Position numbers and translations under genes: made by a program. Below, piece by piece: positions 44,994-61,489 of a stretch of 64,000 bases of DNA (position 1 is its first letter; every line of letters begins with the position of its first letter). The notes beneath the pieces were generated by a model, which was given only the letters and a program-made list of their open reading frames with translations, ran no database searches and was not told where the DNA came from. Origin of the DNA: Acidimicrobiia bacterium (GTDB taxonomy: Bacteria; Actinomycetota; Acidimicrobiia; ATN3; PSLF01); NCBI GenBank assembly GCA_040289475.1, contig PSLF01000001.1:265009-329008 (forward strand), in the 5' to 3' direction.

Positions 44994-46512
44994 TGGGCCG
45001 CATTACTGCTCTCGACAAAGGTTCTAAAAGTGGCGAGCCGTCTCGCACGAACACGGGGTATTCGTCTAGTGGCACCTTCATTTCTAGGCGCGTGTCACCG
45101 TTGTAAATGCGCCCGGGGTCGAACAGGTAACGCCAGCTTCCTTGGTCGGGTAGTCGCACATCGGACGCGCCCGACTCGTCGATGATTGGCTGAACGAAGA
45201 TGTCGGGGCCGAGCGTGTAAGAGAAAGTCCTGCGATCCAGGAAGCGCATCGCTGACTGCTGCTCTATAGGGAATCGATGTGCCAACTCAAGAATATACGG
45301 GACGAGAGCCATGTGTATTCGGACGAAGCGAGCGTAGGCCTCGGTTGCCTCGGGGCCGTAGCCGAACGGACGGTGCTCGGCTATCCCTCCGTTCTCCATA
45401 ACGGGCGAGAACGCGCCCAGAGCTGCCCAGCGAAGCAAGAGATCTCGGGGGACAACCGATCCCGGAGGGGCTATATATCCGCCAATGTCGGAACCGAAGC
45501 CAAAGTATCCGAGTTCCGAGGAGTAGTAAAAGTTGAGGAGGGCTCCCCTGATCCCGGTGTAGTGGTTGGGATCGAAGGAACTCAACTGGTCGCCGACCCA
45601 TCCAGACCAACCGATTTCAGGTGGAGAGAACGAGTGAGCCAGAGCAGCTTTGGGGCCCGGATCACGGCGTTGCGTGTCGACGGGCCTAGCTGTGATCATG
45701 GCATCAGCTCCCCGTGCTAGCCTGGTGATTTGGTAGAGGGTGGCGTAATACTGTCTCGAGTACTCTAGGGGCGAAACCTGGCGAGATAGATATGGAGACC
45801 ACGGGGCCGCGACTACGTAGGGATCTGTCGCATCGACTTTGAATCCATCGACTCCTAGGGAGAGTGCCTTGTCCATTAGGGAGCCCCACCACTGAACAGC
45901 TTCGGGGTTGAAGAAATCGACTAGGCTGCCTTGCCCTTTCCACCATCGAACGACTTTGGGCGATCTTTGAGGACCTTCGGTCATGAAAAACCCTTTTCTG
46001 GCCGCTAGTTCGTACTCGGATCTGGCTTCGAGGTTCATGACGCCGGTTATCCATACGATGACTTTTACCCCCCGAGAGTGAAAGTAGGCGACCATACCTG
46101 CAAAATCTTGAAAGCGGTTCGGATCGGGCTCGAACGTGTTATATGCAGTTTCCCACGGGCTGTCGATAATCACTGCTGTAACCGTGATTCCGCGGTCGAG
46201 GTAGCTATCAACGAGCCGGACAGCGCTGTCTTGTGTGGACTCGTCTTCCCATACCCAGTGGCCGTACACCCAGGAGGGGGGCGGTGAAGTTTCGGTTACC
46301 GAGATTTTTTGTACGTGGCTAGCGTCGGCCGGTGCTGGTCGGTCAATAGATATAAACGGCGACGATGGTAGGTGCGGCTCTGGAGACTGTGTAGCTAGAC
46401 AGGAAACTGCCAAAATCGCGCCAGCGATGGCGATCCGTGTGAGTACCCGCAGTGTGCGTGCACGCACGAAATCTCGACAAACGAGCCGTCCAGCCATATG
46501 CCTGGAAAACAT
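44977..46512 (-). CDS. Secreted glycoside hydrolase, GH31-like TIM-barrel (compact form)
   Basis: Signal/anchor LTRIAIAGAILAVSCLA; VIIDSPWET...FHSRGVKVIVWI; GVDGFKVDATDP (nucleophile region); GSDIGGY (acid/base region) resembling the GH31 catalytic motifs. Confidence 0.6.
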   Translation of the reverse strand: MFSRHMAGRLVCRDFVRARTLRVLTRIAIAGAILAVSCLATQSPEPHLPSSPFISIDRPAPADASHVQKISVTETSPPPSWVYGHWVWEDESTQDSAVRLVDSYLDRGITVTAVIIDSPWETAYNTFEPDPNRFQDFAGMVAYFHSRGVKVIVWITGVMNLEARSEYELAARKGFFMTEGPQRSPKVVRWWKGQGSLVDFFNPEAVQWWGSLMDKALSLGVDGFKVDATDPYVVAAPWSPYLSRQVSPLEYSRQYYATLYQITRLARGADAMITARPVDTQRRDPGPKAALAHSFSPPEIGWSGWVGDQLSSFDPNHYTGIRGALLNFYYSSELGYFGFGSDIGGYIAPPGSVVPRDLLLRWAALGAFSPVMENGGIAEHRPFGYGPEATEAYARFVRIHMALVPYILELAHRFPIEQQSAMRFLDRRTFSYTLGPDIFVQPIIDESGASDVRLPDQGSWRYLFDPGRIYNGDTRLEMKVPLDEYPVFVRDGSPLLEPLSRAVMRPSEGGH

Positions 46513-47450: not shown

Positions 47451-48461
47451 ATGACCATGCATCGAAAGATTTCTAGACGACTCCAGCTCAAAGCCGACAA
47501 AGACTATGTGATTCTCGCCGACAACATGGATGTCCTTCCAGCTTTACCCGACGAGTGCGTAGACCTGGTTTACATAGATCCCCCGTTCAATACAGGAAGG
47601 GTACAAAAACGCGTCACCGTGAGGGCCATGCGCGTTTTGGAGAACGGCTCCGGAGAGGGCGCAGGGTCCGAGGGGAAAAAGAGCCCTGCGCAAGAGATTG
47701 GAGGAGCAGGCGTAGAACCATCGCTACGCCGTGGATTCTCAGGTGCTAAATACAAGTTGGAGACAGTAAACGAAATTTACTACCCGGACTGTTACCACGA
47801 CTACGCTCGCTTCTTGGTACCTCGGCTTCGAGAAGCCAGGCGCCTTTTGTCGAAACGTGGCAGCATCTACGTACACCTTGACTACAGAGAGGTCCACTAC
47901 ATAAAAGTCGAGCTGGATCAAGTATTCGGGCGAGAGGCTTTTTTGAACGAGATTGTCTGGGCCTACGACTACGGAGGGCGGACGAGGCGGCGTTGGCCCT
48001 CCAAGCACGACACCATCCTCTTTTATGCAAAGGATCCTAGGGAGTACTACTTTGATCTCGAAGCGGCGGGAAGAATCCCGTATATGGCTCCCAGCTTGCA
48101 AGCGCCGGAAAGGGCTCAACGGGGTAAGAGCCCGACGGATGTATGGTGGCACACTGTTGTATCGCCCACCGGAAAAGAGAAAACAGGGTACCCCAACCAA
48201 AAGCCCGAGGCGATCTTGAAGCGGATCGTAGCGTCGTCTTCTCCGCCGGGAGGACGAGTTCTGGATTTTTTCGCTGGAAGCGGAACTACGGGCGTGGTGG
48301 CTCGTCGTTTGGGACGTCGCTTCGTCCTCGTAGACTGTGAGCCGCGAGCGGTGGAGATAACTCTGAACAGGTTGGAAAAAACTTTTGGCACTGCAGACGA
48401 GATAGAAGTTCTAGATTTCTCCGCCAAGAAATCCATGCGTGGAGCCGAGTCTCCCTTTTGA
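47451..48461 (+). CDS. Beta-class DNA methyltransferase (N6-adenine or N4-cytosine), orphan
   Basis: Motif IV DPPFN (VYIDPPFNTGR) lies N-terminal to motif I FxGxG (VLDFFAGSGTTGVVA), which is beta-class order. ILFYAKD and WWHTVVSPTGKEK are conserved blocks. A Gly-rich insertion follows DPPF. No restriction endonuclease is adjacent. Confidence 0.8.
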   Translation: MTMHRKISRRLQLKADKDYVILADNMDVLPALPDECVDLVYIDPPFNTGRVQKRVTVRAMRVLENGSGEGAGSEGKKSPAQEIGGAGVEPSLRRGFSGAKYKLETVNEIYYPDCYHDYARFLVPRLREARRLLSKRGSIYVHLDYREVHYIKVELDQVFGREAFLNEIVWAYDYGGRTRRRWPSKHDTILFYAKDPREYYFDLEAAGRIPYMAPSLQAPERAQRGKSPTDVWWHTVVSPTGKEKTGYPNQKPEAILKRIVASSSPPGGRVLDFFAGSGTTGVVARRLGRRFVLVDCEPRAVEITLNRLEKTFGTADEIEVLDFSAKKSMRGAESPF

Positions 48462-49445: not shown

Positions 49446-50792
49446 ATGGCATTTCCAGAAGGGCCGAGCGGCCCAGAGCAGACCAAACCTTTCGAAGGTC
49501 GTGATTTTGGCGAGGCTCCTCTACCGGGTGTCGGTGAAGAGTCTGGATCCTGGGTTCCACCAGGCACCGGACAGCATGCGCCATGGGCCGGGGGGCCCCA
49601 ACCGACTCACCACCAGTCATGGACGAGTCCTAACGCTTGGCCGCCTCAGGTTGCCTGGCCTTCGGCAGGGGCGCCGGAGCAAGCGCCTTCCCAGCCGCCG
49701 AAGCCGCGCTTTAGCGTGGCTACTGTTTTGACCTCTCTGCTTCTTAGCATTCTCGTGGGAGGGCTCGCGGGAGCAGTTGCGGGATCGCGAGCGGAGAGAG
49801 CGAGGCCGACGCCAGTCAGTATTCCGCAGGCAGGTCCAGTCGCTCTTCCAGAAGGGGCGTCGATCGCTGATTTGGTTCGTGCCGTCGAGCCGGGAGTAGC
49901 CACCGTTCATGTGTTCAGTGGCGCCCAGCGGGGTGCGGGAACCGGATTTCTAATCGATAAAGACGGACACATCGTGACTAACCGGCATGTAATCGAGGGA
50001 GCTCGGGAGTACCGGATCAACCTCGCGGGGAAGAAAGATTTGCGGGCTCGCCTTGTGGGAGCTGATCGGGAACTCGATATTGCGGTGCTCCAGATAGATC
50101 CATTTCCAGACATGAAGCCCCTCACCCTGGGGAACTCCGACCATCTACGAGTAGGGGACACGGTAATCGCTGTGGGCAACGCGCTTGATTTACCCGGCGG
50201 GCCTACGGTAACCATGGGAATTGTTTCGGCCCTGAATCGATCGCTCTCGGACGAGACCCCAGGCGGGCGAAGAATAGTACTGACCGGCCTTATTCAGACC
50301 GATGCCGCCATCAATCCGGGGAACTCGGGGGGTCCGCTTCTGAACCTCGCTGGCCAGGTAGTGGGGGTCAATACAGCAGTCGCCGCAAATCCGAACGACA
50401 TCACGGGTTCCCAGCAAGCTCAGAACATAGGGTTCGCGATAAACATCAATGACGCCAAAGTAGCGGCTGAAAACGTCATCAACGGGGTGGTGTCAAGGAG
50501 GGCTATCTTGGGTGTGGATGTCGTGACTGTAACACCCGTGGTGGCGGAACGACGCGGCCTGGCCGTCGACGAGGGGGCTCTGGTTGCTGACCTAATGCCT
50601 GGAGGACCGGCAGAGGCAGCAGGGTTACAAGTCGACGATGTAATCGTCGCAGTCGATGGGAAAAAGGTAACGAGCGCGGAGGAGCTGCGGGCCGCGTTGC
50701 GGCCGAAAAATCCCGGTGACGAGGTCGGGGTCGAGTTTTACAGGGGTCAGGAAAAAAAGGCTGTAAGGGTGAAGCTGGGTGAGGCCCCATAA
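49446..50792 (+). CDS. htrA: HtrA/DegP-family serine protease (S1C) with a Pro-rich N-terminus, TM anchor and C-terminal PDZ
   Basis: Catalytic His (HIVTNRHV), Asp (DIAVLQI) and Ser (GNSGGPLLN), and a PDZ domain (GALVADLMPGGPAEAAGLQVDDVIVAVDG). Confidence 0.9.
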   Translation: MAFPEGPSGPEQTKPFEGRDFGEAPLPGVGEESGSWVPPGTGQHAPWAGGPQPTHHQSWTSPNAWPPQVAWPSAGAPEQAPSQPPKPRFSVATVLTSLLLSILVGGLAGAVAGSRAERARPTPVSIPQAGPVALPEGASIADLVRAVEPGVATVHVFSGAQRGAGTGFLIDKDGHIVTNRHVIEGAREYRINLAGKKDLRARLVGADRELDIAVLQIDPFPDMKPLTLGNSDHLRVGDTVIAVGNALDLPGGPTVTMGIVSALNRSLSDETPGGRRIVLTGLIQTDAAINPGNSGGPLLNLAGQVVGVNTAVAANPNDITGSQQAQNIGFAININDAKVAAENVINGVVSRRAILGVDVVTVTPVVAERRGLAVDEGALVADLMPGGPAEAAGLQVDDVIVAVDGKKVTSAEELRAALRPKNPGDEVGVEFYRGQEKKAVRVKLGEAP

Positions 50793-50818: not shown

Positions 50819-51085
50819 TCATTTCTCGGCTGTCACCTCTCTTGTATCGCGCACGACCACGAGAGGCCGGTCGGCACTGTCGCTTCGGATAAATCCCGTA
50901 ACGCAGACCTTTTTCACGGGCATGCCGGGCTGTATCTCGAGACCTCTACGGTCGAGTACATTTACCCACAGGCTCGAGTCGGAGTCCCCGGATCCTACTA
51001 CCAAGGTTGCTTCCAAATCGGAACCAGGTTTCCACTCGAGAGAGTGAAGCGGACCGCAAACTCGGACAGCCTCGCCTCTGTGTGC
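50819..51085 (-). pseudogene. In-frame continuation after the TAG at 51086-51088 encoding a second, paralogous copy of the lipoprotein domain; either a disrupted two-domain gene or a sequencing-level stop
   Basis: Same frame as 51086..51496. The translation ...VCGPLHSLEW...SSLWVNVLDRRG...KKVCVTGFIRSDSADRPLVVVRDTREVTAEK aligns with GPLHLYLD...ICVTGQIQQSSDGTRIIVQRAAQV of the upstream domain. Confidence 0.35.
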
Positions 51086-51496
51086 CTAGGTTTGTGCCAC
51101 GTCGACTTCTGGGATCGGGTCTGGCGAAACGCTGACTTGAGCGGCTCTCTGGACGATTATCCGGGTTCCATCAGAACTTTGTTGTATCTGTCCCGTGACA
51201 CATATGGTTCGGGCTAGGTAACGAAGGTTCCCCGCTGTTTTGCGGTCTTGAATTGTCACGATCAAGCTTTGATCCGGCGCGGGTCTGTCCAAGTAAAGGT
51301 GGAGCGGGCCGTCAGAGATAGGATCTTCAATTACTTCTGCCACCTTGGCACAGACCGTGCGAGTAGATCCGGGAAGACTGGCAGCTTCCTGTGGTGACGT
51401 TGATGCTTTGGAGGCACAGGCCCCTATGAGCACTGCGCTTACGGCTGCAACCACAAATTTCCCAACCGTCGAGCGCTGCCGAGGGCGTGTTTCCAC
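51086..51496 (-). CDS. Lipoprotein (hypothetical) carrying a roughly 70-aa domain that is repeated immediately downstream after an in-frame TAG
   Basis: Lipobox LIGAC, then ...GPLHLYLD...LIVTIQDRK...RTICVTGQIQQSSDGTRIIVQRAAQVSV. The start overlaps the rhomboid stop. Confidence 0.6.
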   Translation of the reverse strand: METRPRQRSTVGKFVVAAVSAVLIGACASKASTSPQEAASLPGSTRTVCAKVAEVIEDPISDGPLHLYLDRPAPDQSLIVTIQDRKTAGNLRYLARTICVTGQIQQSSDGTRIIVQRAAQVSVSPDPIPEVDVAQT

Positions 51497-52386
51497 TAGG
51501 ATCCTCCGAAGGAAAGTCGCCCCGCAAGGACAAGCGCGACGGTTGCGGCGATCACGACCGAGGCAGATGCTATAGCTGGATAAGAGCTCTGTTGGCTGGT
51601 CGAAGCATCGAATCCAGCCCCTATCGCCAGTCCTGACACTAGTCCCCCAAGGTGAGCCAGATTGTCGATTCCCGGAACGACAAATCCAATGAACAGATTG
51701 ATCGCGACTATCAGTCCGATCTGAGCGAGATTAGCTCTGGCCCACGGGGACCTACGTCTTCTGTACAAAGCTGCTCCCAAGGCGCCAAATAGCCCGAAGA
51801 TAGCACCCGATGCGCCCACGGATCCTGCCGCATGCATTAAGGCTGAAACAGGTCTGGCGAGAATCGGAACTGTTGCAGAGAGGAGGCTGGCGAAAATCCC
51901 GGTGAGCAAGAAGGCAGCCAAAAGCTTGGTGGCCCCCCAGGCTTCTTCTAGGATGCTTCCCACTACGTACAGCGCGTACATGTTAAACAGGAGGTGCAGC
52001 AGGCCGGCATGAAAGAAGATAGCTGTCACCACCCTCCACCACTCCCCGAGACCGTAGACGAGATAAGGATGCGACATCCCGAGTGTCGCCAGCCTGTGGC
52101 CTGACAAAGCGTCCAACAGAAACACCCCTACGCAGATTCCGATAAGTGTGGGGGTAGCATTCGCAGGTTTTGGGACGAATACTCGGGCCCTCGAGCGAAC
52201 GGTTACCGGTCGTACAGCCGTTCGCGATATGCACTCGGGGCACCTTTGGCCAACGTCAACCACGAAGGTGCACTCGGGGCACGTCGGTTTTCCGCACCGA
52301 CTACATCGCACCCAAGCGGGGATACCAGGGTGGAAGTAGCAACTCTCAGGATGCGGGGCCTGGATATGTTCGAAGTCGTACGCCAT
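51496..52386 (-). CDS. Rhomboid-family intramembrane serine protease with an N-terminal zinc-ribbon domain
   Basis: N-terminal CSRCGKPTCPEC...CPEC; rhomboid GxSG (GASGAIFGLFGA) and the catalytic His in AHLGGL; six TM helices. Confidence 0.85.
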   Translation of the reverse strand: MAYDFEHIQAPHPESCYFHPGIPAWVRCSRCGKPTCPECTFVVDVGQRCPECISRTAVRPVTVRSRARVFVPKPANATPTLIGICVGVFLLDALSGHRLATLGMSHPYLVYGLGEWWRVVTAIFFHAGLLHLLFNMYALYVVGSILEEAWGATKLLAAFLLTGIFASLLSATVPILARPVSALMHAAGSVGASGAIFGLFGALGAALYRRRRSPWARANLAQIGLIVAINLFIGFVVPGIDNLAHLGGLVSGLAIGAGFDASTSQQSSYPAIASASVVIAATVALVLAGRLSFGGS

Positions 52387-53803: not shown

Positions 53804-55108
53804 ATGGATCGAGCTTCCTCTGTGAGAGTGACTGCCGGGACGAGGCGCAAATCACCTGGCCTAGAGCTAGTGCCGGTCGGTGAAAAGCCGATCGAGCCGT
53901 ACGCCGAGATCGTAGGCGACGATGTAGTAGAAGAGATCGTCGAACGCGCCGCTAGACTCAAGGGCGCACGTGTATTACATATAAACGCCACGGCTTTCGG
54001 AGGAGGTGTAGCCGAGCTCCTCTACACCCTCGTCCCCCTCTCTCGCTCTGTAGGTCTTGACGCTGAGTGGCGCCTAATTCGTGGCTCCGATGATTTCTTT
54101 CACGTGACGAAATCAGCTCACAACGGTCTTCAGGGCATGGAGGTAGTCTGGACAGAACACATGGAAGAGATTTATCTCTCTAAGTTAGAGGAGAACGCCC
54201 GAGAGTGGGGCGGAGAGTACGACTTCGTCGTGTGCCACGACCCCCAAACTGCTGGATTACTTCGGCTTATCGAAGAGGTCACCGGTAAGCGCCCATCAGG
54301 GCAATGGATATGGCGGTGCCATATAGACCTTACCCGTCCCTATCAGCCTGTTATGGATTTCTTCAGGCCTTACATCACGCCTTTCGATGCCCACGTTTAC
54401 ACTCTGGACGAGTTCGTTCCCGAAGGGATTGACAACAAGGTCGCAATTATTACTCCTTGCATAGACCCATTGGGATCCAAGAACCTCTGGATATCGCGTT
54501 TGACAATTAGGTCGATTCTAGAGGGCTACCGCATTGACCCTGACAGGCCGATCGTGTGTCAGATCTCCCGCTTCGATCCTTGGAAAGATCCTATCGGCGT
54601 AATAGATGCATACCGGATTGCTAAAAGTTCGCACCCCGACCTACAGCTCATTCTCGCAGGATCCATGGCCAGTGATGACCCGGAGGGATGGCACTACTTC
54701 AATGCTGCAGAGGAACATAGGGCTGGGGAGGCCGATATTTTTCTACTCACGAATATGCAGGGTGTTGGAAACACACAAGTAAACGCATTTCAAAGGGCAG
54801 CTGACGTTGTAATTCAAAAATCCCTTCGTGAAGGCTTTGGCCTCACTGTTAGCGAAGCACTGTGGAAGGAGACCCCCGTTATTGGGGGAAATGTAGGCGG
54901 CATCAAGCTGCAAGTAATAGATGGCAGGACGGGGTTTTTAGTAGAAAGTCCGCAGGAGTGCGGCGAGAAGCTTGCCTACTTGCTTTCACGCCCAGACGAG
55001 ATAGAGAGAATGGGGAAAGAAGGAAAAGAACACGTAAGAAAAAATTTTCTTTCCACAAACTACCTTCTCAATTATCTCAAGTTGTTCAATGAGCTTACAG
55101 GGGTGTGA
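53804..55108 (+). CDS. treT: GT4-family trehalose synthase, TreT-like (NDP-glucose:glucose trehalose glycosyltransferring synthase)
   Basis: Recalled TreT blocks: HINATAFGGGVAELLYTLVPL, WRCHIDL, SRFDPWKDP, DPEGW, REGFGLTVSEALWK, GGIKLQVIDGRTGFLV. ATGA overlap with the downstream GT20 gene. Confidence 0.75.
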   Translation: MDRASSVRVTAGTRRKSPGLELVPVGEKPIEPYAEIVGDDVVEEIVERAARLKGARVLHINATAFGGGVAELLYTLVPLSRSVGLDAEWRLIRGSDDFFHVTKSAHNGLQGMEVVWTEHMEEIYLSKLEENAREWGGEYDFVVCHDPQTAGLLRLIEEVTGKRPSGQWIWRCHIDLTRPYQPVMDFFRPYITPFDAHVYTLDEFVPEGIDNKVAIITPCIDPLGSKNLWISRLTIRSILEGYRIDPDRPIVCQISRFDPWKDPIGVIDAYRIAKSSHPDLQLILAGSMASDDPEGWHYFNAAEEHRAGEADIFLLTNMQGVGNTQVNAFQRAADVVIQKSLREGFGLTVSEALWKETPVIGGNVGGIKLQVIDGRTGFLVESPQECGEKLAYLLSRPDEIERMGKEGKEHVRKNFLSTNYLLNYLKLFNELTGV

Positions 55109-56613
55109 TCATTTCGGAAAAAGCACGATCTGAGACGACCCCGACCATTGTGGTCGTTTCCAATAGGGGACCGTACGAGTTCCGGGAAGAAGGGGCGGAC
55201 GTAACCTACTCCAGAGGAGGGGGAGGTCTTGCGGGGGCTTTAGTGCCTGCTATGGAGTCCTACGGAGGGCTATGGGTTGCGACTGCCATGACCGAGGGAG
55301 ACCGCCACGTCTTTTCCAACCGGTCAAGGATTGCCGTGGATAGTGGGACGGGGAAAGCATTCGAAATCGAGTACATGGTATTCGACAGGAATCTATATAG
55401 ACGCTATTACGATGTGGTTTCCACTTCCGTCCTGTGGTTTGCGCTGCACGGGATATTCGACGTAACGAGAAGACCTATTCTCGACCGGCGCTTCGATGAA
55501 GCGTGGGAGAAAAGCTATGTTTATGTCAATCACGCATTCGCGGGAGCCTGCGACCGGTTCCTTATGAGCAAGGGAGTCGAAGCTTCCGTAGCTGTGCTCG
55601 TCCAGGACTACCATTTATTTTTGGTTCCCAGACTTTTAGACAAACGCGAGCTGAACCACAGGGTCATCTTTTTTCTTCACACAGCCTTTCCAGGACCGGA
55701 TCTTCTAGGGGCACTCTCGGCGCCCAGAGTGCGCGAAATCCTTGAGGGGATGTTGCATGCGGACCTGATCGGTTTCCACGCTATGCGCTGGGCTAGAAAT
55801 TTCGTTTCGGCGTGCAAGCAATTCCTAGGAGCCGATGTCATTGCCGAGGAGTACCACATTGGGAGCTCCCCCGAGTATTTTCTTATCTATCACCGGGACA
55901 AAAGGGCAGGCGTAGGCGTTTTTCCGTTGGGTCCCGAACCGTCCTCCTTGCTCGTGCAGGCGGAGTCTCCAGAGGTGCGGGCCTACGAGGAGCGACTGAG
56001 GGTAACCGACAATGACTTTGTGGTGGTATCGGTGGAGCGTGTGGATCCCGCTAAAAATTCTTTGAGAAGCTTGCGGGCTATAGATGAGATTCTTGAAGTC
56101 GTACCCGAGCTCAGAGGTCGGCTTAAGTACTTTCTTTTTGTCTACCCCTCGAGAGAACGCCTCATCGAGTACAAGGCTTTCGAGGCCGAGTGTGCTTCGC
56201 TTGCCAAGGCAGTCAATTTGAAGTGGCGAAGTGGCGATTGGGAGCCCGTCGTATTCGAGGTTTCCGACTCCTATCCAAGATCGTTGGCAGCACTGAAGTG
56301 TTACGATGCCCTATTCGTGAACTCCTTAGCCGACGGTATGAACTTGGTGGCAAGGGAGGGACCACTTGTAAACCAGCGCGATGGAATGTTAGTGGTGTCG
56401 ACAAATACTGGAGCAGCCGAGCTGTACGGAGATTTGGCTTTCCAGGTGAATCCCTTTGACATCTCCGAGCAGGCAGCGGCGATTGAGGAGGTCTGGAGGA
56501 TGTCGCCCGAAGCAAGGCGTGACCGGGCCTCTAAGATTGCCGCAGTGGCCCGCTCGCACACTCCAAAAAGCTGGTTGGACGCTCAGCTTGAGGCCGCCTT
56601 TTCGATGCCATGA
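55105..56613 (+). CDS. otsA: GT20-family alpha,alpha-trehalose-phosphate synthase-like protein (OtsA-like, divergent)
   Basis: VVVSNRGPYEF, LWVA, VLVQDYHLFLVP, FLHTAFP, ADLIGFH, SVERVDPAKN, SLADGMNLVARE correspond to the conserved OtsA/GgpS blocks. The acceptor substrate cannot be assigned from sequence alone. Confidence 0.75.
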   Translation: MIISEKARSETTPTIVVVSNRGPYEFREEGADVTYSRGGGGLAGALVPAMESYGGLWVATAMTEGDRHVFSNRSRIAVDSGTGKAFEIEYMVFDRNLYRRYYDVVSTSVLWFALHGIFDVTRRPILDRRFDEAWEKSYVYVNHAFAGACDRFLMSKGVEASVAVLVQDYHLFLVPRLLDKRELNHRVIFFLHTAFPGPDLLGALSAPRVREILEGMLHADLIGFHAMRWARNFVSACKQFLGADVIAEEYHIGSSPEYFLIYHRDKRAGVGVFPLGPEPSSLLVQAESPEVRAYEERLRVTDNDFVVVSVERVDPAKNSLRSLRAIDEILEVVPELRGRLKYFLFVYPSRERLIEYKAFEAECASLAKAVNLKWRSGDWEPVVFEVSDSYPRSLAALKCYDALFVNSLADGMNLVAREGPLVNQRDGMLVVSTNTGAAELYGDLAFQVNPFDISEQAAAIEEVWRMSPEARRDRASKIAAVARSHTPKSWLDAQLEAAFSMP

Positions 56614-56633
56614 GCCTTCCTCAGCGGTCACGT

Positions 56634-57473
56634 CTAGATTTGGATCTTATCGGGGCGCCTAGCAGCCCGTGTCAGGCTTTCGAGAAAGCCGGCTACGTCG
56701 TGCTGAGAGGGGAGAACGAGGTCCGCAGCGTCTTCAATAGCAGGGTCTAGCTCGTCGGAGCCAACTGCGACTGCCAATCCAGCGCGTCCTTCTCGCATGG
56801 AGGCCCATCTTTTTGCCGCCTCGAAAGCTTCGACATCTCCTATGTCATCGCCCAAATACACGACCGCCTCTAACGCAGCAGGCACCTCCTCGAGGAAATC
56901 CCTCAACGCCCTGCCCTTTCCTACCTCCAAAGGTGGCACGAGCTCTACTACCATTCTCCCTACGAGTACTCGAAGTCCGAGGCGCTGAGCCTGAGTGTCG
57001 GCCCACTCTCTCACTGTTTGCGCGGCAAGGTCGGGGTCGGGTGCTCGACGAAAATGCAGCACTACCGATAGTCCTTTTGGCTCGACTGAATAAGGCTCTG
57101 GCCTTAGCGAAGCAAATTCTTGAGCGGCGCGAGTAGCCTCTTCGATAGCAGCTTTCCAGTGGATCGCCTCGTCTCTCGCTCTTTCGAGTCCGTAAAGACC
57201 AATGCGCACTATTCGGTCGCTCGGAATCATCTTCTCGAGGAACTTCGAGGTTCTTCCCGATATAACTGCCGCCGCTCCGACTAGTTCGGAGAGGGTGTCG
57301 AGTTGCGTTAATGCCGCCAGATCAGGGTATGCAAGAGCCGGGTCGTCGACGATCGGAGCTATGGTACCGTCGTAGTCTGTGACGATGGCCACAGCTCGGG
57401 GCCGGCTCTCGAGAATTGACAGGACGCCTTCAAGGGGTGAGTTCTCGTTCGGTTGGTGTGGTTTTTTACTCAC
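56634..57473 (-). CDS. otsB: HAD-family sugar-phosphate phosphatase, trehalose-6-phosphate phosphatase-like
   Basis: HAD motif I VTDYDGTI, motif III/IV YLGDDIGDVEAF, length 279 aa, convergent to the GT20 gene. Confidence 0.75.
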   Translation of the reverse strand: MSKKPHQPNENSPLEGVLSILESRPRAVAIVTDYDGTIAPIVDDPALAYPDLAALTQLDTLSELVGAAAVISGRTSKFLEKMIPSDRIVRIGLYGLERARDEAIHWKAAIEEATRAAQEFASLRPEPYSVEPKGLSVVLHFRRAPDPDLAAQTVREWADTQAQRLGLRVLVGRMVVELVPPLEVGKGRALRDFLEEVPAALEAVVYLGDDIGDVEAFEAAKRWASMREGRAGLAVAVGSDELDPAIEDAADLVLPSQHDVAGFLESLTRAARRPDKIQI

Positions 57474-57985
57474 GTTTTGCCCAAAGATAAGACCAGTTCG
57501 TTAGAGGAAGGATTCTCTATTAGTTGAGCTTTTGGACGAAGATCGCTTGCGAGGCGCTCGGCCACAGCTCTTGACCCGGGGGGATACGCGATTACGGAGC
57601 GATCGAGCCGCGACGATGCTGGTGGGAGGATGTGTACGGTGTATCCCAGAGAGCGCGCTAGGTCTCTCGTCTTGGCAAACTCATCGTTCGAGGCGCCAGC
57701 CTGCTGAAGCGCGACTGTCACTTTGGATCTCTCCGGGAGCGCAGTGGGCGAAGCTTCTGGCGTAGGAGACGGCAGCGATGGAGGCGACGGTGCTTGTGAA
57801 AGCGGTGAGCGCTCAGCTGACTCGGGGGGTGCTGGTGTCGGGTTGGGGCCAGTTATTTGGACAACGAAGTGGGAGTTGCGTGGCATGAGGAGCAAAAATG
57901 TGGCTCCTACCACGAGGCCGAGCAGTACGATCCCAGCGATAACCCTTGCAATTGGACTGTTTACAGCTCTAAGTACGAAATCCAC
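57470..57985 (-). CDS. Membrane-anchored LytR_C-domain protein (hypothetical); 4-nt overlap with otsB
   Basis: N-terminal TM VIAGIVLLGLVVGATFLLL, Pro/Ser-rich linker, C-terminal LytR_C-like VTVALQQAGASNDEFAKTRDLARSLGYTV...VIAYPPGSRAVAERLASDL. Confidence 0.6.
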   Translation of the reverse strand: MDFVLRAVNSPIARVIAGIVLLGLVVGATFLLLMPRNSHFVVQITGPNPTPAPPESAERSPLSQAPSPPSLPSPTPEASPTALPERSKVTVALQQAGASNDEFAKTRDLARSLGYTVHILPPASSRLDRSVIAYPPGSRAVAERLASDLRPKAQLIENPSSNELVLSLGKT

Positions 57986-58209
57986 TCGCTACCGCTCCTC
58001 AATAAGGTTCCCCAAAAAGAGGCAACGTTGGCCCGATTGCTGCCTTCGCTCTGGCAACCGAAAGCTTGCTTGGAGAAGTCATACCGCGTTCTAGATGTAA
58101 GCTCGTCCTCGGCAACGAAAGCTTACCGGAGGCATGACCTCGAGTGCGCGATCCGAACGCTGATGGACTAGATCGACCGCCTGGCCTTGTCCCGTTGGAA
58201 GGTTGCGCG

Positions 58210-58956
58210 ATGGCTGGAGGCGATTCACAGCTCTTGGAGCAAGACGCGGTTTTCGCTCGCGGTGAAGGAGACAACTGGTTTCGTCGCAACCGCACGGCAC
58301 TTGCCTCCACTGAGCTGGCTAAGCGGGACATTGCTCTGGAGATGGTCCTCTCCCTGCGCCCACCCCCTGCCTTCATTCTCGAAGTGGGATGTGCTACGGC
58401 GTGGAGACTGGTTGCAGTTCAGGAGGCTACGGGAGCGTTTTGCGTGGGGATAGATGTATCCCAAGAGGCACTGGCAGAAGGAAAGCGGAGCTTCAGCATT
58501 GGTAGGGGTCAGCCGAAACTCGCCCGGGCAAGGGTTTCTGCGCTTCCTTTTTCTCGGTCGGTGGAGTTCGATGTCGTGATAGCAAGCTTCGTGTTTCACT
58601 GGATCGACCGCAAGCACTTGCTTCGCGCTGTCGCCGAGATTGACTCTCACCTCGCGGACGGGGGTAGATTGATACTTCAGGACTTTTTGCCGTCGGAACC
58701 GACAAAAGTCCCCTATCATCACCTGCCTGATTCTGGAATCTTCACGTACAAGCAGGATTACTCGGAAATCTTTATCGCATCCGGTCTGTACGAGCTAGAA
58801 AAAGTCGTCGTATTCGACCACGACGACCCTTCCGGCCCGATCAAGATGCTTTCGCAAAACGCGTCGTCGCAGAATGCGATTCCTGAGCGGTCTAGGGCAG
58901 GGGCGTGGCTGATAAAGAAGGTGAAAGCCGGAGTGCACCGCCTCCTGAGCACATGA
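58210..58956 (+). CDS. Class I SAM-dependent methyltransferase (ORF extends upstream to 58144)
   Basis: Motif I ILEVGCATAWRL, acidic motif II IGIDVS, motif III FDVVIASFVFHWI, and post-II DGGRLILQD. Confidence 0.7.
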   Translation: MAGGDSQLLEQDAVFARGEGDNWFRRNRTALASTELAKRDIALEMVLSLRPPPAFILEVGCATAWRLVAVQEATGAFCVGIDVSQEALAEGKRSFSIGRGQPKLARARVSALPFSRSVEFDVVIASFVFHWIDRKHLLRAVAEIDSHLADGGRLILQDFLPSEPTKVPYHHLPDSGIFTYKQDYSEIFIASGLYELEKVVVFDHDDPSGPIKMLSQNASSQNAIPERSRAGAWLIKKVKAGVHRLLST

Positions 58957-59070
58957 GCCGGCACTAGATCGAGTTTGGCGGGCGGATTTTCGTGCCAGCG
59001 GATGTGGGAATAAGTGGTTGAGAGTCTTTCTCTCGACCTCTCGACGGCCTGCTGCGAGGTGGAGTGTGAC

Positions 59071-59826
59071 ATGGACGTAGAAGAGTACGGTCGCATTGCG
59101 CAAGCAGAGGATGCGCACTGGTGGTACCGCGCTGTTCGGGCGGTACTCAGCAAGGCTGCCGAGAGGAGACTCGAACCCAAGACGGGCAGGTTCTTGGATG
59201 CAGGCTGCGGTCCGGGGGGAAACAGCAACTGGGTTCCCGGCAAATTCTTAGTGTATGGAGTCGACATAGCTGCCGAGGCAGTAGCCTACTCCGCGGCTAA
59301 GCGCCCGGAGATGCAAGTTATCCGAGGTTCGGTAACGGCTCTTCCGTTCAAGGAGGAAAGCTTCGACGGAGTGCAGTCGATTACTGTGGTCTGCCATACG
59401 GCAGTGAGTTCGGTACAGATAGCGCTCGCGGAGTACCACCGGGTGTTGCGCCCCGGGGGACTGTTACTTCTGGTAGAACCCGCGTTCAGGATTTTCAGGC
59501 GCTCCCATGACCGGGTAGTGAGAGCAGAAAGGCGGTTCCGATTGCGGGAGCTGTGCGAAGCGGTCGAGGATGCAGGATTCGACATCTTCGCCGCAACATA
59601 TTTCTTTGCGTGTTTGGCCCCTGCTGCGCTCGCTCTCGCTTTAGTCGATAGGGCGTCTGGTGGATCTGGACACAAAAGCGACTTGGAGAGGCCGAGCGCA
59701 CTGGACCCGATCTTCGAAAAGCTGGCTGCTGTCGAGATCAAACTTGCGTCAAGGGGTCTTTCGGGCGAGGGCAGATCGGTGATTCCATTTGGAACCTCTG
59801 CTTTAGTCGTGGCGATCAGAAAGTAG
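59071..59826 (+). CDS. Class I SAM-dependent methyltransferase (type 11-like); ATG at 59071 is preferred over the ORF start at 59014
   Basis: AHWWYRA, motif I FLDAGCGPGGNS, VYGVDIA, motif III FDGVQSITVVCH, post-II LRPGGLLLLVEP. Confidence 0.7.
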   Translation: MDVEEYGRIAQAEDAHWWYRAVRAVLSKAAERRLEPKTGRFLDAGCGPGGNSNWVPGKFLVYGVDIAAEAVAYSAAKRPEMQVIRGSVTALPFKEESFDGVQSITVVCHTAVSSVQIALAEYHRVLRPGGLLLLVEPAFRIFRRSHDRVVRAERRFRLRELCEAVEDAGFDIFAATYFFACLAPAALALALVDRASGGSGHKSDLERPSALDPIFEKLAAVEIKLASRGLSGEGRSVIPFGTSALVVAIRK

Positions 59827-59877: not shown

Positions 59878-60843
59878 TCATAGATATTTCGAGGCAGCAG
59901 CGATAGCTTGCTCGGCCTCCTCAACGAATCTCCGTACCAGTTCTCCTGCCGGGACCAACTCTTGGATAGCTCCACTTCCCTGACCAGCAGGGTAGCACTC
60001 CTTCTCCGGGTCGACGTCTTCCGCCTCGGGCCCTAGCGCTAAATGAAATGCCCCATCTTGAAAAGACCGCATAGCTTGGATCGGAAACGGCTTTAGTTCT
60101 TCGGGATGATCGTCCCACCAGTCGGTGTACTTGTTTTTCAGAACCCGCATTGTCTTGCCCGAGTATGCCCGGCTTATCACCGTGGAGTCTTCTTTTGCTC
60201 GGATCAGTGCTTCTTTGTATCCAGGCGTCGTTCTTGCCTCAGGAGTGGCGATGAACCTCGTGCCTATCCATACACCGTCAGCTCCTAGCATCAAAGCCGC
60301 TGCCAATCCTCTTCCGTCGAAGATACCTCCGGCCGCGAGGACTGGGACCCGATCGCCCACCGCGTCGACGATCTGGGGCACCAGGGGGAATGTCGCAACT
60401 CGCCCCGTGTGCCCGCCGGCCTCTGTTCCTTGGGCAACCACGATGTCGCACCCTGCCTCAACTGCTCGCACTGCGTGCGAGACCTTACCGCACATGTTCA
60501 TTACCAAAAGGCCGTTTCGGTGGCACATCTCTATGACTGATTCGGGAACTCCGAGGCCTGCTACGAACACCGATGCTCCACCCTCGATAACAAGCTCTAC
60601 TAGCGGCGTCATGTCGCCTGGCATGGCAGTGAGCAAGTCGACGCCGAATGGTTTGGCAGTCAAATCCCTGACCCTTTTCATCTCTTCCACCATCTGTTGA
60701 GGACTCATGGTCGAGGCTCCAAGGCAGCCGAAACCTCCGGCTTCCGACACAGCCGCTACCAAACTCGAGTACGAAACGCCCCCCATTCCCGCGAGAAGTA
60801 CGGGGTGCTCAATACCTAGCATCTCCGTAATACGAGTCTTCAT
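59878..60843 (-). CDS. Nitronate monooxygenase / NAD(P)H-dependent flavin oxidoreductase (NMO/FabK-like)
   Basis: LGIEHPVLLAGMGGVS, the FMN-binding region GADGVWIGTRF, and C-terminal VAQGTEAGGH. Confidence 0.85.
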   Translation of the reverse strand: MKTRITEMLGIEHPVLLAGMGGVSYSSLVAAVSEAGGFGCLGASTMSPQQMVEEMKRVRDLTAKPFGVDLLTAMPGDMTPLVELVIEGGASVFVAGLGVPESVIEMCHRNGLLVMNMCGKVSHAVRAVEAGCDIVVAQGTEAGGHTGRVATFPLVPQIVDAVGDRVPVLAAGGIFDGRGLAAALMLGADGVWIGTRFIATPEARTTPGYKEALIRAKEDSTVISRAYSGKTMRVLKNKYTDWWDDHPEELKPFPIQAMRSFQDGAFHLALGPEAEDVDPEKECYPAGQGSGAIQELVPAGELVRRFVEEAEQAIAAASKYL

Positions 60844-60982: not shown

Positions 60983-61489
60983 CTAGGTGCCCGCACCGTT
61001 CTGCTCGTCTGTGGTCGTTTCCAAGCATTCTGATTCCACTGACTCGTCGGGGACCAATCCGACCTCGCTGACTTTGCCCAGCCCTGAATGAATCGAGATA
61101 GCCTTGGCCAACTGCTCGGTCTTGGTTTTTGGAACCACCTTGAAGCGAAGCCGGTTAGGCGCAGGAGCATCGGCTTTGAGGTACAGTTCGATTCGCCCAT
61201 AACCCAGAGGAGTCGATCCAGTTTCGATTTTCTCAATCCATTCCAGCGAGAAGCTTGTTGTTTGGGAGTTGATCTTTGCTCGGTCTACGAAGAACACCCG
61301 TTTTTCTGTCACTGCGACCAATCCGAAGCGGCCTTTATATGCGCCTCGCGCCAGGGATACGACGATCTCTCCAGGCTCCACCATAGACTCGAGCCGACGA
61401 AGCTCCTTTCGAACGGCGAGGCGGGCCGGGGCAGATAGATCGCTGAGCGACACTTCCACAATGCTCTTGGAAGCGTTGCTCTCTTGCAT
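60983..61489 (-). CDS. Bacterial PH-domain (bPH/DUF304-like) protein, hypothetical
   Basis: PGEIVVSLARGAYKGRFGLVAVTEKRVFFVDRAKINSQTTSFSLEWIEKIE is the strand-rich core typical of bacterial PH-like domains. 10-nt gap to the upstream gene. Confidence 0.5.
   Translation of the reverse strand: MQESNASKSIVEVSLSDLSAPARLAVRKELRRLESMVEPGEIVVSLARGAYKGRFGLVAVTEKRVFFVDRAKINSQTTSFSLEWIEKIETGSTPLGYGRIELYLKADAPAPNRLRFKVVPKTKTEQLAKAISIHSGLGKVSEVGLVPDESVESECLETTTDEQNGAGT

Follow-up and report, generated by a model that had tools for sequence, protein, structure and literature searches.

We analyzed a 64,000-nucleotide stretch of DNA from an Acidimicrobiia bacterium (GenBank assembly GCA_040289475.1, contig PSLF01000001.1, positions 265,009 to 329,008 of the forward strand; hereafter the window, whose own numbering is used throughout) and, within it, a minus-strand lipoprotein gene that is interrupted by an in-frame TAG codon (Table 1). 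Translation of the gene gives 136 sense codons, the TAG, 88 further sense codons, and a TGA, all in a single frame. Its GTG start (51494-51496) overlaps the TAG stop of an upstream rhomboid protease gene by one base, and a convergent gene for an HtrA/DegP-like protease ends 26 nt from its own end. Based on comparison with related genomes, in which the two halves form one uninterrupted open reading frame (ORF), we read this locus as a two-domain gene cut by a private CAG-to-TAG change, that is, by a nonsense mutation or an error. An earlier, first-pass annotation, made from the window sequence alone, had described a 136-codon lipoprotein ORF with the lipobox LIGAC, the TAG, the continuation of the same frame beyond it, and the one-base overlap with the rhomboid stop at position 51496; all of these are confirmed by translation. 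The C terminus that it gave for the product (QVSV) is wrong, since the 136-residue protein ends in ...SPDPIPEVDVAQT, also given as ...QVSVSPDPIPEVDVAQT. In the public databases, this truncated product has the record MER3453808.1 (locus tag C4318_01440); its contig is 335 kb long.

Table 1. Features of the lipoprotein gene and its flanking protease genes (window coordinates)
Feature	Position	Strand	Basis or remark
Tandem-OB lipoprotein gene, 225 codons in relatives	50819-51496	-	GTG start, TGA stop 50819-50821; interrupted at codon 137
In-frame TAG, codon 137	51086-51088	-	Sense codon CAG in six assemblies of the same species
16-bp cluster of three linked private differences	51073-51088		Elsewhere only in ERZ1673965 NODE_1094
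Shine-Dalgarno sequence GGAGGA	51502-51507	-	5 nt before GTG, within the 3' end of the rhomboid gene; read from sequence
Lipoprotein signal peptide (residues 1-26) and lipobox L-I-G-A-C27	51416-51496	-	Translation
OB-fold domain 1, residues ~43-124, near-invariant Cys49 and Cys99	51125-51370	-	Model, fold comparison, profile alignment
OB-fold domain 2, residues ~128-225, Cys147 and Cys198	50822-51115	-	Model, profile alignment
Rhomboid intramembrane serine protease, Cys-rich N terminus	51496-52386	-	PF01694 E = 1.6e-31; WR motif, GASG (catalytic Ser), AHLGG (His)
HtrA/DegP-like serine protease with PDZ domain, convergent	49446-50792	+	Trypsin_2 E = 2.3e-34; PDZ_2 E = 3.2e-16

A search with the read-through sequence returned seven proteins (P0001 to P0007), all of them encoded by single ORFs and 204 to 235 residues long. 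The closest, P0001 (225 residues, annotated as a hypothetical protein, C4319_04965, from an Acidimicrobiia metagenome-assembled genome [MAG]), differs from the window sequence only by Q137, which is the stop here, and Q142, which is glutamate here; it is encoded in five independent assemblies (L001 to L005) and in a JGI scaffold (L016). Six conspecific assemblies are 99.76 to 99.94% identical to the window over 6.2 to 12.7 kb, without indels, and within the gene they differ from it at exactly three positions, coding-strand nucleotides 409, 414, and 424. In four more distant orthologous loci, codon 137 is CTC, GAC, GTC, or GCA. Looking for an uninterrupted two-domain ORF in related genomes had been proposed as a check, and such an ORF is present at all 12 comparable loci outside this sample, with CAG in the nearest; the opposite arrangement, with the two domains as separate genes, was found in none of the orthologues. 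Among the three readings that the first-pass annotation had left side by side, a two-domain gene with a nonsense mutation or sequencing error is thus retained, whereas programmed readthrough and a decaying duplicate fall away, for reasons given below. The part of the gene 3' of the TAG has neither a signal peptide nor a plausible start codon or ribosome-binding site of its own; its first in-frame start, a TTG at 51016, lies beyond the first two barrel strands of domain 2, and one gene caller emitted a second, 61-residue ORF (P0017) for this part.

At the N terminus, a positively charged n-region (METRPRQRSTVGK) is followed by a hydrophobic h-region (FVVAAVSAVLIG) and then by A-C27. The orthologues have an equivalent N-terminal signal segment, Cys27 is invariant in all seven, and the box is conserved as GAC, SAC, or ASC. 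The protein therefore carries both a signal peptide and a lipobox of the form [LVI][ASTVIG][GAS]C, and lipidation is predicted. An AlphaFold2 model built on a seven-sequence alignment (pLDDT 83.8, pTM 0.75; mostly above 90 in the mature part and below 50 for residues 1 to 29) has two all-beta domains, both of them OB barrels, with a short helix ahead of each (residues 35 to 39 and 133 to 139). On this model, both domains belong to the OB-fold superfamily, as defined by a five-stranded closed beta-barrel of OB topology. The TAG codon falls in the second short helix, ahead of strand 1 of domain 2. In the fold comparison, the anticodon-binding N-terminal domains of AsnRS, AspRS, and LysRS rank at the top, together with RPA, Teb1, Ten1/Stn1, and POT1; among exported proteins, the scores are 8.4 for YgiW, 8.2 for CcmE, and 7.7 for a protein labeled "putative nucleic acid-binding lipoprotein" (PDB 3f1z).

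The two domains had been called paralogous, with a profile comparison suggested as the check on whether the repeat is significant, and this is borne out. BLASTP aligns the two halves over 76 residues at 28% identity (E = 1e-4), a profile-profile comparison of domain 1 with domain 2 (hhalign, seven orthologues) spans 73 columns at 94% probability (E = 1.4e-7), which is beyond chance, and the modeled barrels share a fold, so that significant half-to-half similarity and a common fold together identify a tandem internal duplication. The remote homologue P0018 is likewise tandem. Two details of the earlier description change, in that the repeat unit is ~95 rather than ~70 residues and the shared GPLH string is coincidental, because it is out of register in both alignments; we therefore dropped it as evidence for the repeat. 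The other shared elements, namely the C-x-TG block, the D-R-R/K block, and the first cysteine, are in register.

A profile search had also been suggested as a way to name the fold of the repeat, but for the window protein Pfam, NCBIfam, and the PDB gave no family: Pfam and NCBIfam scans produced no significant match, and a PDB sequence search with the orthologue profile returned nothing at E <= 1. When 1.84 billion cluster representatives were searched with a profile, 184 proteins were recovered at E <= 1e-3. Most of these remote homologues are exported, single-domain proteins of 115 to 150 residues, and some are tandem or multicopy. Of 107 that were scanned, 28 match PF01336 (tRNA_anti-codon OB domain; E <= 0.01, best 7.9e-9), two weakly touch PF12869, and a small number also have SNase, Exo_endo_phos, Excalibur, PG_binding_1, or TonB_C domains. 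One source labels one homologue a YhcR-type endonuclease. Neither the window protein nor P0001 matches PF01336 at all, let alone above the gathering score. Because only the remote homologues match, we file the protein as related to PF01336 and not as a member. The family consensus has two near-invariant cysteines, in TVCG and ICVTG, and the pair in each exported domain probably forms a disulfide. Judging from the fold and the remote homology, the protein most likely binds a polymer outside the cytoplasm, on the outer side of the membrane; nucleic acid, which secreted OB domains of the PF01336 type bind, is the best guess. The one point of mild novelty is that these extracytoplasmic OB domains with their Cys pair form a subfamily not described before; as this OB family has no Pfam or NCBIfam model yet is fairly widespread (184 representatives), a domain definition would be a modest gain for annotation.

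The TAG belongs to a cluster of three changes relative to the conspecific assemblies: CAG to TAG at 51088, the silent GCG to GCA at 51083, and CAG to GAG (Q142E) at 51073. We favor, with limited confidence, the view that this haplotype is a real, rare, and very recent allele. Its only other carrier is contig NODE_1094 of assembly ERZ1673965, and the window sequence is normal past the third single-nucleotide polymorphism (SNP), where that of NODE_1094 is not; therefore, at least one read besides the adapter-bearing one described below must carry the haplotype. Over 12.6 kb, 20 further sites distinguish the two contigs, which are thus distinct consensus sequences. Further, glutamate at position 142 is the residue found in three orthologues, so Q142E leads to a known state, and the source contig, at 335 kb, points to much deeper coverage than the fragmented assemblies have.

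A number of observations nonetheless weigh against a real allele. Over the ~14.8 kb (14,805 bp) of the window covered by at least three other samples, only four positions set the window apart from all assemblies but NODE_1094, and three of these four lie within the 16-bp cluster. If such differences arose independently, the chance of this arrangement would be ~1.5e-5; the cluster is therefore a single event, whether an aberrant read, a mutation spanning several nucleotides, or the import of a short tract. NODE_1094 itself is a 12.7-kb contig at only 5.4x k-mer coverage (the sister assemblies range from 3.5x to 5.4x), and it ends 14 nt past the third SNP in nine unmatched bases followed by the start of a TruSeq adapter, AGATCGGAAG; this tip of junk and adapter corresponds to positions 3426-3444 of L013 and 1-19 of L020 and abuts window position 51072. 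The next contig of ERZ1673965, NODE_222, stops at window position 50839, which leaves a gap of 232 bp. A contig break, an adapter, and a mismatch cluster at one spot are a warning sign, and clustered differences recur elsewhere, with three consecutive bases (45967-45969) private to the low-coverage assembly ERZ1673964 (L001).

All of this gives some weight to a different account, in which the organism itself has the intact gene, with CAG, and one or a few aberrant reads at a thinly covered spot, derived from a chimeric or end-repaired fragment end or from a sequence-specific Illumina error, entered the consensus. Clustered mismatches near fragment ends are a documented kind of library-preparation artefact (PMC6941819, PMC10908179, and PMC8674242). 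We regard such an artefact as a serious possibility but a doubtful one, given the further read implied by the normal sequence beyond the third SNP, the many other differences between the two consensus sequences, the orthologous precedent for Glu142, and the length of the source contig. In addition, the 64-kb window contains no fold-back or chimeric donor: the 26-mer formed by the variant and the junk bases has no match there at up to three mismatches, which also removes a gene-conversion donor within the window, and the 14-mer tail has a single match there, at chance level. A degenerate 48-mer used to count TAG and CAG haplotypes, whose pattern does match the known loci, had no matches in metagenome_contigs and genome_contigs, collections that evidently omit or mask these records. 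As an observation apart, ERZ1673965 appears to have been assembled from incompletely adapter-trimmed reads, because a public contig of it ends in AGATCGGAAG.

The reference haplotype has two CCAGG motifs 15 nt apart (51061-51089), where the window has CTAGG and CGAGG, the former creating a CCTAGG palindrome. Deamination of 5-methylcytosine produces amber hotspots at CCAGG (Dcm) sites, and classical Escherichia coli lacI work reportedly placed amber hotspots at such sites. The amber change is formally of this type (CCAGG to CTAGG, at the inner C of the coding strand), and the third SNP alters the inner C of the second CCAGG, 15 nt away. We rejected a Dcm-type hotspot all the same, as the window shows no shortage of CCWGG (167 observed compared to 158 +/- 11 expected) and one of the linked changes is a transversion. 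No C5-methyltransferase was identified, and the resemblance to Dcm hotspots is formal only. A DNA methyltransferase gene of the N6_N4_Mtase family does lie at 47451-48461 (+), with no restriction-enzyme family among its annotated neighbors and a position conserved across the clade; it may be an orphan methyltransferase.

Variation among the sister assemblies extends over much of this region. Between 44819 and 63796, SNPs among eight assemblies occur in mosaic combinations (for example, 52069 is common to PSLE, S64, and S65, and 52516 to PSMY, S65, and S67), which suggests a recombining multistrain population or a mixed-strain consensus. Relative to the PSMY and ERZ1673967 assemblies, there are also indel polymorphisms of 4, 12, and 14 bp (57600-57603, 57932-57943, and 60088-60101) and a short nonalignable stretch at ~61355-61387.

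If the allele is real, one of the three linked substitutions of the haplotype would turn Gln137 (CAG) into an amber codon (TAG) where domain 2 begins; translation would stop there, with no recoding, and yield a 136-residue, lipid-anchored lipoprotein with a single OB domain. Domain 2 would be lost, because it has no start codon, ribosome-binding site, or signal peptide of its own. No other damage is visible downstream of the stop, so the event would have to be very recent. As OB1 alone resembles the common single-domain relatives, function need not be lost entirely; in the wider family, single-OB homologues of 120 to 140 residues are the most frequent form, and for this reason the truncated form could be functional. 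Taken further, one may speculate that the amber haplotype is a maintained variant that switches an envelope protein between two-OB and one-OB forms, and that the rhomboid, the tandem-OB lipoprotein, and HtrA make up an uncharacterized envelope module specific to this Acidimicrobiia lineage, but we consider this very improbable.

A more restricted proposal, already made in the first-pass annotation, is that the rhomboid and the lipoprotein form a protease-plus-substrate or partner unit, possibly together with the convergent HtrA. The two genes are likely coexpressed. Besides the one-base overlap here, which suggests translational coupling, there is a 4-nt overlap in two orthologous loci, and every orthologous locus, even that of the most distant orthologue, P0014, preserves the order glycerate kinase, rhomboid, lipoprotein, and convergent HtrA. 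However, the whole 12-kb neighborhood (trehalose genes, glycerate kinase, SDR, methyltransferase, and LmeA) is equally syntenic, so that adjacency, on which the proposal rested, carries little information. The gap between rhomboid and lipoprotein genes widens to 141 nt in L006 and 40 nt in L007, and no rhomboid lies near the remote homologues P0018 and P0028. A transmembrane helix is the usual feature of rhomboid substrates, and the mature lipoprotein has none. Nor does the pair fit the rhombosortase scheme, as the rhomboid scores below the TIGR03902 cut-off (44.6 compared to 84 bits) and the lipoprotein ends in ...RDTREVTAEK, with no C-terminal hydrophobic segment or GlyGly-CTERM sorting signal. 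A literature search combining rhomboid, lipoprotein, and OB-fold retrieved nothing that links them. We conclude that a functional module of this kind is unlikely and that a substrate relationship is unsupported. The rhomboid itself is secure, with 109.9 bits against PF01694 (cut-off 22.6) and WWR, GASG, and AHLGG in its translation; it had been described as a zinc-ribbon rhomboid, of which the rhomboid part holds and the zinc ribbon does not, since the N terminus is merely Cys-rich, with sub-threshold Pfam matches (zf-B_box E = 0.036).

Several neighboring genes deserve brief mention. The HtrA-like protein begins with ~115 Pro/Gly/Trp-rich, low-complexity-looking residues (49446-49800, +) ahead of its membrane segment, trypsin, and PDZ domains. 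A trehalose-related cluster (TreT-like GT1, Glyco_transf_20/OtsA-like, and Trehalose_PPase/OtsB-like; 53804-57473) lies beside a glycerate kinase gene, is conserved in all orthologous loci, and is perhaps a compatible-solute locus. Two adjacent genes for 270-residue proteins with class I S-adenosylmethionine-dependent methyltransferase domains (58144-58956 and 59014-59826, +; Methyltransf_23/25/11/12) look like a tandem pair of paralogues.

Two further explanations of the TAG itself can be set aside. Programmed recoding, whether by readthrough, a suppressor tRNA, or a pyrrolysine-type system, would yield the full two-domain protein, and it would account both for the location of the stop between two domains of one protein and for the 88 intact codons downstream, although an intact frame is expected anyway after a very recent nonsense change. 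Yet none of the six assemblies, at 99.8 to 99.9% identity, has the TAG, and neither does any orthologue, the residue at this position varying among them (Q, L, D, V, or A); TAG is an ordinary terminator in the window, ending 13 of 46 long ORFs, including the rhomboid gene; and no tRNA with a CUA anticodon is encoded in the 64 kb. Both hallmarks of recoding, a conserved stop and a TAG that is rare as a terminator and accompanied by a tRNA-CUA or pyl genes, thus fail, the second as judged within the window, and because the stop is not conserved among orthologues we reject readthrough and TAG reassignment as extremely improbable.

Equally hard to credit is the idea that the downstream segment is the remnant of a decaying duplicate or an independently expressed second gene, for which one could cite the 61-residue ORF P0017 and the roughly twofold faster evolution of domain 2 (proportion of nonsynonymous differences, pN, 0.25-0.41 compared to 0.10-0.21 for domain 1, in the closer orthologues): at every other locus both domains share one ORF without an internal stop, start, or ribosome-binding site, the first downstream in-frame start would drop two barrel strands and leave a fragment without a signal peptide, domain 2 retains 25 invariant residues, both cysteines among them, and its pN of 0.25-0.52 is far below the saturated proportion of synonymous differences (pS), 0.69-0.84. 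As synonymous sites are saturated (pS 0.64-0.92), the comparison is limited to pN lying far below pS in both domains and gives no dN/dS. In each of the lineages, domain 2 is intact, stays in frame, and is under purifying selection.

For annotation, the two called fragments (136 residues and, in one source, the 61-residue ORF) are better described as one 225-residue gene, interrupted or mis-sequenced. More generally, the locus is an example of a MAG consensus that carries a clustered three-base variant beside a coverage gap, and it illustrates that an in-frame stop in a single MAG warrants comparison with sister assemblies before recoding is invoked.

Compared to strain-private nonsense alleles in MAGs, the present case is alike in its C-to-T change of CAG to TAG, its intact downstream frame, its uninterrupted relatives, its truncated annotated product, and a gene that looks nonessential; it is unlike the usual allele of this kind in having two further linked substitutions within 16 bp and a nearby break, with adapter, in a sister assembly. 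On the protein side, several extracytoplasmic OB proteins are known, among them the BOF family (YgiW, PDB 1nnx), the tRNA_anti-like lipoprotein (PDB 3f1z), and CcmE (PDB 1sr3), but these are single-domain proteins without detectable sequence relationship to the window protein. The likeness to YhcR of Bacillus subtilis (COG4085) and other secreted or cell-wall nucleases with PF01336 lies in the PF01336 OB domain found in the remote homologues. In contrast to these YhcR-type nucleases, the window protein has no catalytic domain, is predicted to be lipid-anchored, and would combine, in its uninterrupted form, two OB copies with two near-invariant cysteines in each.
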